Program-made: the position numbers and the translations under genes
Notes under the pieces: model-generated
Database searches by the model: none
Seen by the model: only the letters and a program-made list of their open reading frames with translations
Told to the model about the DNA's origin: nothing
Assembly (NCBI GenBank): GCA_035569175.1
Contig: DATMNJ010000170.1
Coordinates: 1 to 32,000, forward strand
Source of the DNA: Thermoanaerobaculia bacterium
Lineage (GTDB): Bacteria; Acidobacteriota; Thermoanaerobaculia; UBA5066; Gp7-AA6
Direction of reading: 5' to 3'
DNA: 32,000 nucleotides
Shown: positions 11,829-19,896 of the stretch, in pieces
Numbering within the stretch: position 1 is the first letter of the stretch
How the letters are laid out: each line of letters starts with the position of its first letter

Positions 11829-12926
11829 ATGAGTCCCCCGGGCGCGCCTGCCGCGACCGCTCCCTCATCGCACGAGCCGACCCCGCCGCGCGGAAACGCC
11901 GGGCAAGCCCGCCGGCGCGGCCTGCGCATCGGCCTCTTCGTCGCCGGGCTCGCGGTCCTCGGCGCGATCCTCGCCACGGTGGGCTGGAAATCGGTCGCGA
12001 CGAACCTCGGCCTCATCGGCGGCTGGTTCTTCGGTCTCGTCGCCCTGTACGCCGCCGCGCAGGCCGCGTTCGCGATGGGCTGGTGGGTCCTGACGGGGCC
12101 GCCGCCCCGGCCGGTCTCCTTCGGCGCGCTCTTCTCGGCGTACCTCGCCGGCGACTCGATCAACTACTTCACGAGTGTCGCGGGCGAGCCCATCAAGGCG
12201 CAGCTGCTGCGAAAAGAGCTCGGCTTCTCCCACGGCCTGGCGACCGTCACGGTGCACCGCCACGCCGACGTCCTCGCCCAGTGGATCTTCCTCGCCACCG
12301 GCGTCGCCGTCGCGCTCTGGCGCTTCGACCTCCCGACCGTGGCGCGCGCCGCCGTCATCGCGAGCCTGCTCGTCCTCGGAGTTCTCGTCTTCGCGATGAC
12401 CTGGGGTCTGCGCCGCGGCGCCTTCCGCCCCATGATCGCGTGGCTCGGCCGCTTCCGGATCCTCGCCCGGCGCATGGGACGCCTCGAGCACGAAGCCGCG
12501 CGCCTGGATGCAAGGATCGGCGAGTTCTACCGCGACAAGAGCGTCCACTTCGGCTGGGCGGTGACGTGGTGCTTCGTCGGGTGGTGCGGCGGCCTCGTCG
12601 AAACCTACCTCGTTCTGAGGCTGCTCTCGCCCGCGCACGACTGGTCCACGGCGATCGCGATCGAGTCGCTCGCGATGGTCCTGAACAACATCCTGCTCTT
12701 CATTCCGGGCCGCGTCGGAAGCGCCGAGGGCGTCCGCATCGGTGTGTACGCGCTCGTGGGCCTGTCCGCGGCGCAGGGCACGGCGTACGCGCTCGTGCGG
12801 CGCGGCCGCGAGCTGCTGTGGCTCGTGCCAGGATTCGTCGTGCTGCTGCGGCGCCACGTGCTCGGTCCCGGCCACATGCACCTGCCCGAGGTCGAGGCGG
12901 ACCTGCCGCAGGAGGTCGGCCGATGA
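11829..12926 (+). CDS. UPF0104 / lysyl-PG-synthase-TM-like polytopic membrane protein (HpnL-like, flippase-like)
   Basis: ATG 11829 has GGAG 7 nt upstream and lies 22 nt after ispH. A Pro/Ala-rich N-terminus and RRRGLRIG lead into about 8 hydrophobic helices (IGLFVAGLAVLGAILATVGW.., ..GDSINYFTSVAGEPIKAQLL..) typical of the UPF0104 family, to which HpnL belongs. Family call is by pattern only. Confidence 0.7.
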   Translation: MSPPGAPAATAPSSHEPTPPRGNAGQARRRGLRIGLFVAGLAVLGAILATVGWKSVATNLGLIGGWFFGLVALYAAAQAAFAMGWWVLTGPPPRPVSFGALFSAYLAGDSINYFTSVAGEPIKAQLLRKELGFSHGLATVTVHRHADVLAQWIFLATGVAVALWRFDLPTVARAAVIASLLVLGVLVFAMTWGLRRGAFRPMIAWLGRFRILARRMGRLEHEAARLDARIGEFYRDKSVHFGWAVTWCFVGWCGGLVETYLVLRLLSPAHDWSTAIAIESLAMVLNNILLFIPGRVGSAEGVRIGVYALVGLSAAQGTAYALVRRGRELLWLVPGFVVLLRRHVLGPGHMHLPEVEADLPQEVGR

Positions 12927-13591
12927 CGGCGCCCGAGGCGATCCTGTTCGACTTCGGCGGCACGCTCGACGCCGACGGCGTGGCGTGGAAGGACCGTTTC
13001 GCGGCGCTCGTTCGCGCCGAAGCCCCCGCCCTAGCCGGCGACGGGTTCGACCGCGCCTTCTACGCCGCGGACGACGCGCTGATCGGAACGATCCCGGCCG
13101 ACCTATCCTTTCGCGAGACCGTCGAGCGGCTCGCGGCCGGACTCGCGCGCGAGCTCGGCGCCCCGCCGGAGCTGGCGACCCGCGTCGCGTCGCGCTTTCT
13201 CGCGGATTCGCTCGAACGGCTGGCCGGCAGCGCCGCGCTGCTGGACCGCCTGTCGCCGCGGTACCGGCTCGGCATCGTCTCGAACTTCTACGGCAACCTC
13301 GGCGCCGTCTGCGTCTCGACCGGGATCGCACGCCACCTCGGCGCGACGATCGACTCGGCCGCCGTGGGCTTCGAGAAGCCGGACCCGCGCATCTTCCAGG
13401 CGGCCCTCGATGCGCTCGCGGTCTCCGCGGACCGGGCCGTGTTCGTCGGCGATTCGCTGCCGCGCGACATGGCCGGAGCTCGCGCGATGGGAATGCGGCA
13501 CGTCTACTTGAAGCCCGGCGCCGATGCGGCGTGCTGCCCGGACGACGCCGTGATCGCGAGACTCGACCGGCTTCCCGGGGCCCTCCCGTGA
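12923..13591 (+). CDS. HAD-superfamily hydrolase (subfamily IA-like) with atypical motif I
   Basis: ATGA overlap with the upstream gene, AGGAGG upstream. HAD motifs: I ILFDFGGTLD, II LGIVSNF, III GFEKPDPRIF, IV VFVGDSLPRDMAGA. Position Asp+2 of motif I is Gly. Confidence 0.85.
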   Translation: MTAPEAILFDFGGTLDADGVAWKDRFAALVRAEAPALAGDGFDRAFYAADDALIGTIPADLSFRETVERLAAGLARELGAPPELATRVASRFLADSLERLAGSAALLDRLSPRYRLGIVSNFYGNLGAVCVSTGIARHLGATIDSAAVGFEKPDPRIFQAALDALAVSADRAVFVGDSLPRDMAGARAMGMRHVYLKPGADAACCPDDAVIARLDRLPGALP

Positions 13592-18550: not shown

Positions 18551-19896
18551 ATGACCGGACCTCCTACTACCCCGAGCTCGCGAAGAAGATCGCCCCGGCC
18601 GAGGGGCGCCTGGCCGTCCTGCTGCCCGGTCTCGGCGCCGTCTCGACGACGCTGATCGCGGGCGTCCATCTCATCCGCAAGGGGCTCGCGAAACCCTTCG
18701 GTTCCGTGACGCAGATGCAGAAGCTGCGGCTCGGGAAGCGCTCGGCGCCGCGCCACACGCTCGTCAAGGACCTCGTGCCGCTGTCCGGCCTCGACGACCT
18801 CGTCTTCGGCGGCTGGGACATCTTCACGGACAACGCTTACGAGGCGGCCCTCAAGGCGGGCGTCCTCTCCAAGGACATGCTCGAACCCGTCCGCGCCGAT
18901 CTCGAGTCGGTCAGGCCCATGCCTGCGGTCTTCGAGCGCGCCTGGGTCAAGAACCTCGACGGGCCGAACGTGAAGAAGGCGCCGACGAAGATGCACCTGG
19001 CCGAGGCCCTGATCCAGGACATCGCCGACTTTCGCAAGGCCTCGGGCGCGTCGCGGGCCGTAATGGTCTGGTGCGGCTCGACCGAGGTCTACGCCCAGCC
19101 GAAGTCCGTGCACGAGACGCTCGCGGCCTTCGAGAAGGGCCTCAAGGAAAACTCGCCCGACATTCCGCCCTCGATGATCTACGCCTACGCCGCGATCGCC
19201 AGCGGCACACCCTACGCCAACGGCGCGCCGAACCTCTCGGTCGACGTCCCGGCGCTCATGGAATTTTCCCGGGTCAAGGGCGTGCCGATCGCCGGCAAGG
19301 ACTTCAAGACCGGCCAGACCCTGATGAAGACGATCATCGCGCCGGGGCTCAAGGCGCGGATGCTGGGGCTGCAGGGCTGGTTCTCGACCAACATCCTCGG
19401 CAACCGCGACGGCGAAGTGCTCGACGACCCGGGCTCCTTCCGTTCGAAGGAAGTCAGCAAGACCTCGGTCCTCGACGCCATCCTGCAGCCGGACCTGTAC
19501 CCCGAGCTTTACGGCGACTACTTCCACAAGGTTCGCATCGAGTACTACCCTCCCCGCGGCGACGCCAAGGAGGGCTGGGACAACATCGACATCGTCGGGT
19601 GGCTCGGCCAGCCGATGCAGATCAAGATCGACTTCCTCTGCCGCGACTCGATCCTCGCGGCCCCGGTCGTCCTCGACCTGCTGCTCTTCCTCGACCTCGC
19701 CGGCCGCGCGGGCCTCTCGGGCATCCAGGAGTGGCTGTCGTTCTATTTCAAGTCACCGCTGTCGCGGCCGGACCTGAAGCCCGAGCACGACCTCTTCGTG
19801 CAGCACCTGAAGCTCGCGAACACGTTGCGGATCCTGGTCGGAGAGGAAGTGCTGGACCACTCCGGGCTCGACTATTACGAGGGCTCCGGCACGTAG
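18547..19896 (+). CDS. ino1: myo-inositol-1-phosphate synthase (bacterial/archaeal type)
   Basis: ATG 18547 has a perfect AAGGAG 6 nt upstream and an ATGA overlap with the previous stop. Contains LLPGLGAVSTTLIAG (NAD fold), YANGAPN, IAGKDFKTGQT(L)MKT and NILGNRDG blocks typical of MIPS. 449 aa. Confidence 0.93.
   Translation: MNDRTSYYPELAKKIAPAEGRLAVLLPGLGAVSTTLIAGVHLIRKGLAKPFGSVTQMQKLRLGKRSAPRHTLVKDLVPLSGLDDLVFGGWDIFTDNAYEAALKAGVLSKDMLEPVRADLESVRPMPAVFERAWVKNLDGPNVKKAPTKMHLAEALIQDIADFRKASGASRAVMVWCGSTEVYAQPKSVHETLAAFEKGLKENSPDIPPSMIYAYAAIASGTPYANGAPNLSVDVPALMEFSRVKGVPIAGKDFKTGQTLMKTIIAPGLKARMLGLQGWFSTNILGNRDGEVLDDPGSFRSKEVSKTSVLDAILQPDLYPELYGDYFHKVRIEYYPPRGDAKEGWDNIDIVGWLGQPMQIKIDFLCRDSILAAPVVLDLLLFLDLAGRAGLSGIQEWLSFYFKSPLSRPDLKPEHDLFVQHLKLANTLRILVGEEVLDHSGLDYYEGSGT

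Follow-up and report, generated by a model that had tools for sequence, protein, structure and literature searches.

A recurrent eight-gene block with an orphan ATP-grasp enzyme and a putative role in (amino)inositol-phosphate lipid synthesis, beside isoprenoid and hopanoid genes of uncultured bacteria

Downstream of the isoprenoid genes dxs and ispH, a contig of a Thermoanaerobaculia bacterium (DATMNJ010000170.1, positions 1 to 32,000, the whole of this 32,000-nucleotide stretch being called the window) carries a block of eight intact open reading frames (ORFs) on the + strand, from 11829 to 19896. Their predicted products combine inositol phosphate synthesis and CDP-alcohol chemistry with an ATP-grasp protein, an aminotransferase, an oxidoreductase and a flippase-like membrane protein, and the present text deals with this block, its relatives in other phyla and the product to which it may lead. 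Its genes are the following:

Gene 1, 11829-12926, + strand: polytopic membrane protein of the MprF-flippase/HpnL superfamily (PF03706, 97 bits)
Gene 2, 12923-13591, + strand: HAD-IA hydrolase, REG-2/HDHD3-like (PF00702/PF13419)
Gene 3, 13588-14292, + strand: small nucleotidyltransferase with a GEGSRL motif (PF12804 and PF00483)
Gene 4, 14289-15140, + strand: ATP-grasp protein by predicted structure, without a Pfam family
Gene 5, 15137-16477, + strand: class-III (omega-type) pyridoxal-phosphate aminotransferase (PF00202, 349 bits)
Gene 6, 16491-17537, + strand: Gfo/Idh/MocA NAD(P) oxidoreductase (PF01408, PF22725, PF02894)
Gene 7, 17534-18550, + strand: CDP-alcohol phosphotransferase of the AF2299/DIPPS type (PF01066)
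Gene 8, 18547-19896, + strand: myo-inositol-1-phosphate (inositol-3-phosphate) synthase, MIPS (PF07994, 313 bits; PF01658, 109 bits)

The window has a G+C content of ~70%, and all eight frames are open, with a G+C content at third codon positions of 0.91-0.94. Neighbouring genes are joined by ATGA stop/start overlaps at 12923, 14289, 15137, 17534 and 18547 and by a GTGA overlap at 13588; the sole spacer inside the block measures 13 nt (16478-16490), and 22 nt lie between the stop of ispH (11806) and the start of gene 1 (11829). Gene calls, operon structure, overlaps and spacer were all re-read as the first-pass annotation, made from the letters of the window, had given them. Overlaps of four bases are frequent in high-GC operons, and we regard the block as a real unit because its gene order is conserved across phyla, not because of the overlaps. 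No Rfam families, riboswitches or tRNAs were found in the window, and a scan for promoters and terminators gave no usable information in a phylum of such high G+C content. In a Pfam scan, seven of the eight proteins fell into the families expected beforehand (PF03706, PF00702/PF13419, PF12804/PF00483, PF00202, PF01408, PF01066 and PF07994). Gene 4 is the exception: the fold predicted for it and a Foldseek search uphold the earlier ATP-grasp call, but no Pfam family matches it.

A scan of one genome per species gave relatives in at least 256 genomes, from which 80 loci were retrieved, belonging to Acidobacteriota/Thermoanaerobaculia, Nitrospirota, Rokubacteria/Methylomirabilota and one unclassified metagenome-assembled genome (MAG). 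The order HAD hydrolase, nucleotidyltransferase, ATP-grasp protein, aminotransferase, Gfo oxidoreductase, CDP-alcohol phosphotransferase is kept in all 80 retrieved loci, and complete blocks were also found in one Planctomycetes MAG (L090) and one Elusimicrobia MAG (L091). The question whether the block recurs can hence be answered positively for Acidobacteriota, Nitrospirota, Methylomirabilota/Rokubacteria, Planctomycetota and Elusimicrobiota. Protein identities across phyla amount to 50-75%; aminotransferase and MIPS reach the highest values and are the best conserved proteins of the block (70-95% identity across loci). The block is carried by MAGs of soil, groundwater and other metagenomes, and no cultured organism is among the names returned for the ATP-grasp family. 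What is shared is a core of HAD hydrolase, nucleotidyltransferase, ATP-grasp protein and phosphotransferase, usually with MIPS and usually with a PF03706 protein. The aminotransferase/oxidoreductase pair always sits between ATP-grasp protein and phosphotransferase, including in L058, L090 and L091, which are free of hopanoid genes nearby, and a Rokubacterial locus (L061) contains only the four core genes in the order HAD, nucleotidyltransferase, ATP-grasp, phosphotransferase, followed by a major facilitator superfamily (MFS) transporter. Judged by gene content, the pair is an optional insertion into the shared core. We see evenly balanced chances that the block, as its sequences suggest, is one conserved module for an (amino)inositol-phosphate lipid head group, most likely carried by a C35 hopanoid polyol.

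The earlier statement that no described pathway combines all of these functions has to be narrowed. The 'alternative' inositol-lipid cluster described in B. vulgatus and Prevotella, which consists of MIPS, a nucleotidyltransferase, a CDP-alcohol phosphotransferase, a HAD hydrolase and a nearby PF03706 protein (Heaver et al. 2022, PMC9246714), has counterparts for six of the eight functions; the oxidoreductase/aminotransferase pair and the hopanoid context, however, are additional. Clusters of this type, genetically predicted and biochemically unverified, have been linked to inositol sphingolipids in B. vulgatus and P. veroralis, and to phosphoinositol dihydroceramide (PI-DHC) and phosphoinositol diacylglycerol (PI-DAG) (PMC9246714). 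A metagenome contig of Bacteroidaceae type (L088) shows the layout of the published cluster, namely a nucleotidyltransferase::ATP-grasp fusion, phosphotransferase, PF03706 protein, HAD hydrolase and MIPS. Every core protein of the window has a homologous counterpart there (tblastn E values of 4e-42 for ATP-grasp, 4e-26 for the nucleotidyltransferase, 8e-26 for HAD, 4e-14 for PF03706 and 1e-155 for MIPS), which places the core within this alternative cluster type. The fusion, located at 10001-11644 of L088 (proteins P0354, P0402, P0404), comprises 547 aa, and its C-terminal half is 32% identical to the ATP-grasp protein of the window; this half is unrecognised by Pfam and is not mentioned in PMC9246714.

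Since the ATP-grasp protein belongs to no Pfam family, its affiliation was examined by structure prediction. An AlphaFold2 model built on 38 homologues reached a predicted local distance difference test (pLDDT) of 88 and a predicted template-modelling score (pTM) of 0.86, and Foldseek matched it with probability 1.0 and a TM-score of ~0.7 to ArgX, LysX, Ddl, RimK, PsnB and ITPK1 (E values of 1e-14 to 1e-12 for ArgX, LysX, Ddl, PsnB and RimK, and 3.5e-12 for ITPK1). K133, D237, D250 and N252 are invariant in the family, so that fold, conserved Lys and metal ligands together make it a member of the ATP-grasp superfamily. Its nearest branch is less evident. In a PDB profile search the alignments to PsnB (1e-6) and RimK (4e-5) covered most of the protein, the one to ITPK1 (5e-3) just its C-terminal metal-binding region. 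None of the 38 homologues reached the Pfam threshold for the RimK type (PF08443) or ITPK1 (PF05770), subthreshold matches being present to PF05770 in seven of them (best E 0.027) and to PF08443 in four (best E 0.018). With hand-typed target sequences, hhalign gave probabilities of 65% for RimK and 51% for ITPK1. In place of the RimK motif R-x-N-x3-GG the family has an invariant W-F-x-W-F-Y-H, and the metal ligands form an ITPK1-like D-x-N instead of E-x-N; a K-x4-H-x-T stretch of gene 4 is presumably shared with ITPK1.

The ATP-grasp protein of the window is 100% identical to one from a Thermoanaerobaculia (Acidobacteriota) MAG. Its family has more than 2000 members in a 90%-identity collection, and 469 representatives were found at E<=1e-30 in a 50%-identity library. 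Among the representatives we found fusions of the kinds nucleotidyltransferase::ATP-grasp (in seven of seven such proteins tested), ATP-grasp::phosphotransferase and HAD::nucleotidyltransferase::ATP-grasp, whose sources, by name, are Thermoanaerobaculia, Bacteroidaceae, Bacteroidales, Planctomycetes and Elusimicrobia; the fusion of gene 3 and gene 4 homologues occurs in Thermoanaerobaculia, Bacteroidales and Planctomycetes. Of ten fusion clusters examined, five contain several full-length members on different contigs and are therefore not assembly artefacts, and the other five, the triple fusion with HAD included, are singletons. A mini-module of PF03706 protein, HAD hydrolase and ATP-grasp::phosphotransferase fusion (700 aa) lies at 6278-10103 of L092, a locus whose main block is devoid of a HAD gene, as are the main blocks of several other Acidobacteriota loci.

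The first-pass annotation had considered an N-acylation of the cyclitol by the ATP-grasp enzyme. This is unlikely, given that L061 and the Bacteroidales contig L088 keep the enzyme without aminotransferase and oxidoreductase, and that it is fused to homologues of genes 3 and 7; because L061 retains it in the absence of genes 5 and 6, its action must be independent of the amine which these would introduce. From the pattern of retention and fusion we take the ATP-grasp protein to be a core enzyme of the module and the putative partner of genes 3 and 7. The reported Bacteroides product PI-DHC carries no extra acyl or aminoacyl group, for which reason a 'traceless' ATP-dependent step, phosphoryl transfer, is simplest. 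We favour such a transfer, with the lipid alcohol or an inositol intermediate as acceptor.

The beginning of the pathway is more readily assigned. Gene 8 matches PDB entry 7NWR, the MIPS BT_1526 of Bacteroides thetaiotaomicron, which makes myo-inositol phosphate in vitro, with 560 bits over residues 11-438; given this full-length match to the family and to a characterised member, it is a MIPS, of the long Bacteroides/eukaryote-like type. Rokubacterial loci are without the long MIPS and have a short mycobacterial/archaeal-type MIPS nearby instead. MIPS activity thus seems to be needed, because a non-orthologous enzyme of the same activity replaces the long form there, and inositol phosphate as pathway substrate, anticipated by the first-pass annotation, is borne out.

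The phosphotransferase encoded by gene 7 has the complete signature D-x2-DG-x2-AR-x8-G-x3-D-x3-D, starting from residue 188. Simple hydropathy analysis gave four clear transmembrane segments and a long merged C-terminal stretch (291-330), which we read as about six predicted transmembrane helices without a C-terminal extension. Its best matches in the PDB are AF2299 (79 bits) and, next, IPCT/DIPPS of A. fulgidus (4mnd, 58 bits). With the signature, the approximately six predicted helices and a soluble N-terminal domain it has the AF2299/DIPPS architecture. The N-terminal domain is cytidylyltransferase-like and degenerate, and lacks GxGxR in all lineages, so that a separate gene should supply the nucleotidyltransferase. 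The IPCT/DIPPS equivalog model NF041135 has a cut-off of 580 bits, to be compared with 94 bits for gene 7 and 27 bits for gene 3. Neither AF2299 nor the IPCT/DIPPS of A. fulgidus handles lipids, and the six-helix architecture goes with a soluble acceptor, for example an inositol phosphate, whatever the donor (Clarke et al., PMC4634129). Because gene 7 shares this architecture, inositol-3-phosphate is the likelier acceptor, and by sequence a reaction of CDP-X with inositol-3-phosphate, followed by the HAD enzyme, is at least as likely as one of CDP-inositol with a lipid alcohol. Transfer of a CDP-cyclitol onto bacteriohopanetetrol (BHT), as first proposed, is accordingly left as one of two directions: the CDP-alcohol signature is complete, but enzymes of the AF2299/DIPPS type take a soluble acceptor.

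The same observations would suit a soluble compatible solute of the di-myo-inositol-phosphate (DIP) or glycerophosphoinositol kind, in aminated form, made by joining CDP-X and inositol-3-phosphate to a phosphodiester phosphate on which the HAD enzyme would then act; the hopanoid neighbours would reflect a shared role under osmotic or other stress. MIPS, cytidylyltransferase, DIPPS-like transferase and phosphatase are exactly the DIP logic, the nearest enzymes to gene 7, AF2299 and DIPPS, are non-lipid ones, an MFS transporter follows the core in L061, and a hopanoid genomics preprint names tolerance of high osmolarity as the most frequent trait among hopanoid producers. We nevertheless find this explanation improbable. 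A conserved protein of the MprF-flippase type was detected in 73 of the 83 loci, neighbours such as HpnN/HpnM, Mla and Omp85 speak for a lipid, and the homologous cluster of Bacteroidales goes together with inositol lipids. DIP is known from (hyper)thermophiles, whereas the block was found in MAGs of soil, groundwater and other metagenomes.

Genes 2 and 3 encode two further enzymes of the core. The nucleotidyltransferase (gene 3) has weak matches to the IPCT half of IPCT/DIPPS, to MurU and to IspD, and would catalyse the CTP-dependent activation of an alcohol phosphate. A MEP-derived polyol (MEP, methylerythritol phosphate) as this alcohol, suggested by the weak likeness to IspD, was set aside: MIPS is the conserved partner, and copies of dxs, ispH and ispG are usual companions of hopanoid clusters. 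The HAD hydrolase (gene 2) is a putative phosphatase acting on a phosphorylated intermediate. It possesses the nucleophile Asp and motifs II-IV, and its motif I, DFGGTL, is invariant across 71 loci with Gly in place of Asp+2, as in REG-2/HDHD3-like and dehalogenase-like HADs; the label 'phosphatase' is uncertain because this second Asp of motif I is missing. In the PDB it lies closest to uncharacterised HADs, to HDHD3 and to a fluoroacetate dehalogenase. In two shc-adjacent blocks a metallophosphoesterase of purple-acid-phosphatase type lies directly 3' of MIPS (L076, 15850-17184; L084, 10764-11999) and may serve the pathway as a phosphatase, either besides the HAD enzyme or in its stead.

The aminotransferase and the oxidoreductase are of a more general kind. 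Nearest solved relatives of gene 5 are gamma-aminobutyrate (GABA), putrescine and omega-transaminases, and the family models which score best for it describe generic GABA or acetylornithine aminotransferases. In gene 6 the Rossmann, EKP and D-x3-H motifs of Gfo/Idh/MocA enzymes are present; its similarity to sugar or cyclitol dehydrogenases is generic only (61 bits to scyllo-inositol dehydrogenase, 55 bits to the IolG model with its cut-off of 355). The obvious reading of these sequences is that the two would oxidise and then transaminate a ring hydroxyl, leading to an inosamine. Known inosose aminotransferases of aminocyclitol pathways are of the DegT type. The aminocyclitol logic of the first-pass annotation may hold, a Gfo oxidoreductase and an aminotransferase being present, but gene 5 is of class III instead of DegT. 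HpnO is a class-III aminotransferase, and two pathways in one operon might therefore be assumed, one in which genes 5 and 6 would modify the hopanoid side chain, in an HpnO-like route to aminobacteriohopanepolyols, and one in which the rest would make an ordinary inositol phospholipid. The pair is separable, being missing from L061 and the Bacteroidales cluster, and the window holds no other HpnO candidate. Its constant position, on the other hand, and its retention in L058, L090 and L091 without nearby hopanoid genes speak for a single pathway, as does the strong conservation of gene 5, and we consider the two-pathway explanation very improbable.

A product which is a lipid rather than a solute is indicated by the PF03706 homologues in 73 of the 83 loci together with Mla, MlaC, Omp85 and HpnN/HpnM neighbours. 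These homologues of gene 1, detected by tblastn, come from 61 Acidobacteriota, 8 Rokubacteria, 3 Nitrospirota and 1 unclassified locus. 'HpnL-like', the label given earlier to gene 1, can be kept in part: TIGR03476 is its best NCBIfam model, but the score of 116 bits stays below the cut-off of 195.65, and only membership of the broader PF03706/TIGR00374 flippase-like family can be stated. No sequence match to gene 1 was found in the PDB. We consider it a probable translocase of the finished lipid.

In the window, the genes upstream and downstream of the block are the following:

Longest ORF from 1258, domains from ~2250, end 4188, + strand: shc (SQHop_cyclase_N 391 bits, SQHop_cyclase_C 456 bits)
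4189-5190, + strand: hpnH (358 bits, cut-off 225)
5277-6263, + strand: hpnA (485 bits, cut-off 368)
6250-6987, + strand: HpnG-like phosphorylase (109 bits, below the HpnG cut-off of 187)
To 7880, + strand: gene of the squalene/phytoene-synthase family (SQS_PSY, by Pfam)
7896-8933, - strand: divergent conserved gene without Pfam or NCBIfam family
8844-10826, + strand: dxs, MEP pathway (by Pfam)
10823-11806, + strand: ispH, MEP pathway (by Pfam), directly 5' of the block
Downstream of the block: dinB, then unrelated genes (ORF scan of the window)

With squalene-hopene cyclase, HpnH and accessory hpn genes this is a hopanoid biosynthesis locus, and dxs and ispH are translationally coupled by a GTGA overlap at 10823. 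None of the 37 window ORF translations scanned is an HpnI/J/K-type protein (glycosyltransferase, B12-type radical-SAM, YdjC-type deacetylase); Pfam and NCBIfam thereby bear out both the shc/hpnH/hpnG/hpnA flank and the missing hpnI/J/K that had been noted before. As regards gene boundaries, the longest shc ORF comprises 976 aa, ~330 residues of which precede the cyclase domains, and its 5' stretch overlaps an opposite-strand gene of the glycine-transporter family (819-1802); the stretch is probably a high-GC ORF extension, the real start lying near 2200-2250. The SQS_PSY ORF overlaps hpnG by ~260 nt.

Linkage to hopanoid genes is also found outside of this window, within flanks of up to 10 kb around the block loci. 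Among Acidobacteriota, MEP genes adjoin the block in 60 of 64 loci (dxs in 57, ispH in 60), and hpn genes are in the flank of 19 of the 64. The arrangements which carry most information are these:

L081, uncertain lineage (MAG GCA_973798295.1), syntenic with the Nitrospirae locus L051: shc-hpnG-mlaE-mlaF-mlaD-mlaC-omp85-DUF3187-block-dxs-ispG on one strand
L051, Nitrospirae MAG: order as in L081, with a bona fide hpnH (553 bits) at its end
L084, Methylomirabilales: shc, with the eight genes directly after it
L076, unclassified: hpnN-hpnM-shc-x-block
L065, L069 and L080, Rokubacteria: HpnN-like transporters (607 bits in L069) and HpnM-like proteins beside the block
L086, metagenome contig: HpnR downstream of the block (868 bits, cut-off 650)
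L092, close relative of the window organism: second mini-module between hpn genes and dxs

The HpnN-like proteins of Rokubacteria and L076 score 575-607 bits. Altogether shc, hpnH, hpnG, hpnN, hpnM or hpnR stand beside the block in at least six gene orders and four phyla, and the association first seen in one window is met again in independent arrangements (L076, L081, L051, L084, L086, L092). In L081 (3563-8558) and L051 (3-2753) hpnG is separated from the block by genes for an Mla-like ABC lipid transporter (MlaE, the ATPase, MlaD, MlaC) and for proteins of the Omp85 and DUF3187 families. Here these genes replace the PF03706 gene, an arrangement suggestive of product export to the outer membrane. 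Published work has reported shc in Nitrospirales, Rokubacteria and Acidobacteriota, and HpnP in Rokubacteria.

The hopanoid linkage of the block is not universal, and the same enzymology could lead to a phospholipid whose (amino)inositol is carried by diacylglycerol, an ether lipid or a ceramide-like lipid, an amino analogue of phosphatidylinositol or inositol phosphoceramide, with the hopanoid, MEP and transport genes next to it for co-regulation of envelope lipids. The homologous Bacteroidales cluster has been tied to PI-DHC/PI-DAG and not to hopanoids (PMC9246714), the Mla system of L081 belongs to a family of phospholipid transporters, and no hopanoid gene lies within 8-10 kb of the block in many loci, from Nitrospiraceae, Planctomycetes, Elusimicrobia and several Rokubacteria. 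Co-regulation alone can hardly explain hpn genes in so many gene orders and phyla, however, nor the paralogous mini-module inside the hopanoid locus of L092, and we rate this alternative as rather unlikely.

On the reading of an (amino)inositol-phosphate head group on a hopanoid polyol, MIPS would provide inositol-3-phosphate, and gene 3 would activate an alcohol phosphate with CTP, possibly giving a CDP-activated hopanoid. Gene 7 would then couple the CDP-activated alcohol to a second alcohol, more likely inositol-3-phosphate, in which case the HAD enzyme would strip off the leftover phosphate, as in the conversion of phosphatidylinositol phosphate to phosphatidylinositol. The ATP-grasp protein would contribute an ATP-dependent step physically coupled to activation and transfer, the oxidoreductase and aminotransferase would turn one ring hydroxyl into an amine, and gene 1 would translocate the product. 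Whether CDP-inositol meets a hopanoid alcohol or a CDP-hopanoid meets inositol phosphate, the product class would be the same, a hopanoid-phospho-(amino)inositol. A product linked specifically to hopanoids is a subset of the head-group reading and in our opinion possible, with more doubt than confidence attached to it. Equally tentative is the wider picture in which uncultured lineages of soil and groundwater make a bacteriohopanepolyol with phosphodiester-linked (amino)inositol by CDP chemistry with an obligatory ATP-grasp step, the same step being the one missing from the Bacteroides pathway; its carriers would be Thermoanaerobaculia, Rokubacteria/Methylomirabilales, some Nitrospirota and others.

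Several observations weigh against a hopanoid phosphodiester. The closest characterised relatives of gene 7, DIPPS and AF2299, make soluble phosphodiesters, the HAD hydrolase is devoid of the Asp+2 of classical phosphatases, and gene 5, as a class-III aminotransferase beside hopanoid genes, might be of the HpnO type and act on the hopanoid side chain instead of on inositol. The evidence for a kinase or a ligase activity of the ATP-grasp protein is equivocal, RimK/LysX-type matches being longer and the D-x-N region being shared with ITPK1. Around two thirds of the Acidobacteriota loci show dxs/ispH only, which may be housekeeping copies, and within 8-10 kb no hopanoid gene was found in the Nitrospiraceae loci L058, L066 and L068, several Rokubacteria, L090 and L091. 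Every carrier found is uncultured. Finally, we know of no phosphorylated hopanoid; the known polar head groups of hopanoids are few and, to our knowledge, none of them is phosphorylated or inositol-based.

Some further neighbours of the block should be mentioned. The gene at 7896-8933 is divergent from dxs in 51 Acidobacteriota loci and travels with the dxs-ispH-block unit, its linkage to the block being tighter than that of the hpn genes. Its protein carries two E-x-x-H motifs (EEGRH, EEARH) and weakly matches the MiaE-like hydroxylase 5ux1 (E 0.002), which makes it a candidate MiaE-like diiron hydroxylase, perhaps an isoprenoid or hopanoid hydroxylase or desaturase. In Rokubacteria a membrane protein of 523 aa with a CopD domain always follows the phosphotransferase (L069, 14409-15980); the CopD-domain protein is also present in L056, L062, L064, L067, L078, L083 and L087, often with the PF03706 protein after it. 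Nitrospiraceae blocks (L058, 16056-17348; L068, 5506-6711; the contig of P0134) have radical-SAM/SPASM and RND efflux flanks, and these radical-SAM/SPASM neighbours are 23-24% identical to HpnH. In the window itself, 24931-28789 encodes a DUF1800 protein of 806 aa that has TIG and SLH domains and, after it, a DUF1501 protein, a recurrent pair with no relation to the block.

Hopanoids, from which the geological hopane record derives, are major membrane lipids. If the proposal is true, the block would stand for a new class of hopanoids, a counterpart of phosphatidylinositol or phosphatidylethanolamine, and it gives lipid chemists a concrete mass target (BHT plus phosphoinositol or phosphoinosamine) as well as a genetic marker for uncultured lineages which dominate many soils and aquifers. 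Apart from hopanoids, an overlooked ATP-grasp domain is present in the Bacteroides/Prevotella pathway, any mechanism of which must account for it; its role can be addressed in cultivable and genetically tractable Bacteroides, and if the proposal holds, the ATP-grasp step would fill a gap in the alternative route by which gut Bacteroides and Prevotella make inositol sphingolipids.

Among the known systems, the Bacteroides/Prevotella cluster comes closest. It shares the parts list of MIPS, nucleotidyltransferase, CDP-alcohol phosphotransferase, HAD and PF03706 protein, the last annotated there as 'lysyl-PG synthase', and also the ATP-grasp protein, whereas the block described here has an oxidoreductase and a class-III aminotransferase, unfused genes and a position in hopanoid/MEP loci outside Bacteroidota; the phosphotransferases belong to different subfamilies, with 31% identity over 109 residues only. 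IPCT/DIPPS and AF2299 of Archaeoglobus fulgidus resemble gene 7 in signature, approximate number of predicted helices and cytidylyltransferase-like N-terminal domain, and the DIP pathway resembles the block in its sequence of MIPS, cytidylyltransferase, transferase and phosphatase. Unlike IPCT/DIPPS, gene 7 is far from the equivalog score and has no GxGxR in its N-terminal domain, and the block adds ATP-grasp, aminotransferase, oxidoreductase and flippase-like genes in a neighbourhood of lipid genes. A CDP-inositol-dependent ether-lipid phosphoinositol synthase of Rhodothermus marinus, reportedly described by Jorge, Borges & Santos in 2015 (reference 34 of PMC9246714), is the bacterial experimental precedent for one of the two possible directions here, the transfer of phosphoinositol from CDP-inositol onto a lipid alcohol; amination, an ATP-grasp protein or a hopanoid context are reportedly not part of that description.

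The HpnI/J/K system of BHT cyclitol ether and HpnO of aminobacteriohopanepolyol synthesis are similar in genomic setting and in placing a polar, amine-bearing group on the C35 side chain. In contrast to HpnI/J/K, the block contains no glycosyltransferase, deacetylase or B12/radical-SAM ring-contraction enzyme, its cyclitol would derive from glucose-6-phosphate via MIPS, and the linkage would be a phosphodiester instead of an ether. With the aminocyclitols streptomycin, hygromycin A and rhizopine it could have in common the steps of MIPS, phosphatase, Gfo dehydrogenase and aminotransferase; those pathways use DegT/StsC-type aminotransferases, while gene 5 is of class III, gene 6 is generic and an antibiotic-type tailoring context is absent. 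In the literature we found no paper pairing hopanoids with MIPS or inositol biosynthesis, no amino-inositol lipid and no follow-up on the alternative CDP-inositol pathway since 2022, and the most recent preprint on hopanoid genomics contains no mention of inositol and describes the function of HpnL as unclear. New in comparison to the known systems are therefore the insertion of aminotransferase and oxidoreductase, the AF2299-type transferase, the recurrent linkage to hopanoid genes, the phyletic range and the ATP-grasp protein as part of the core.

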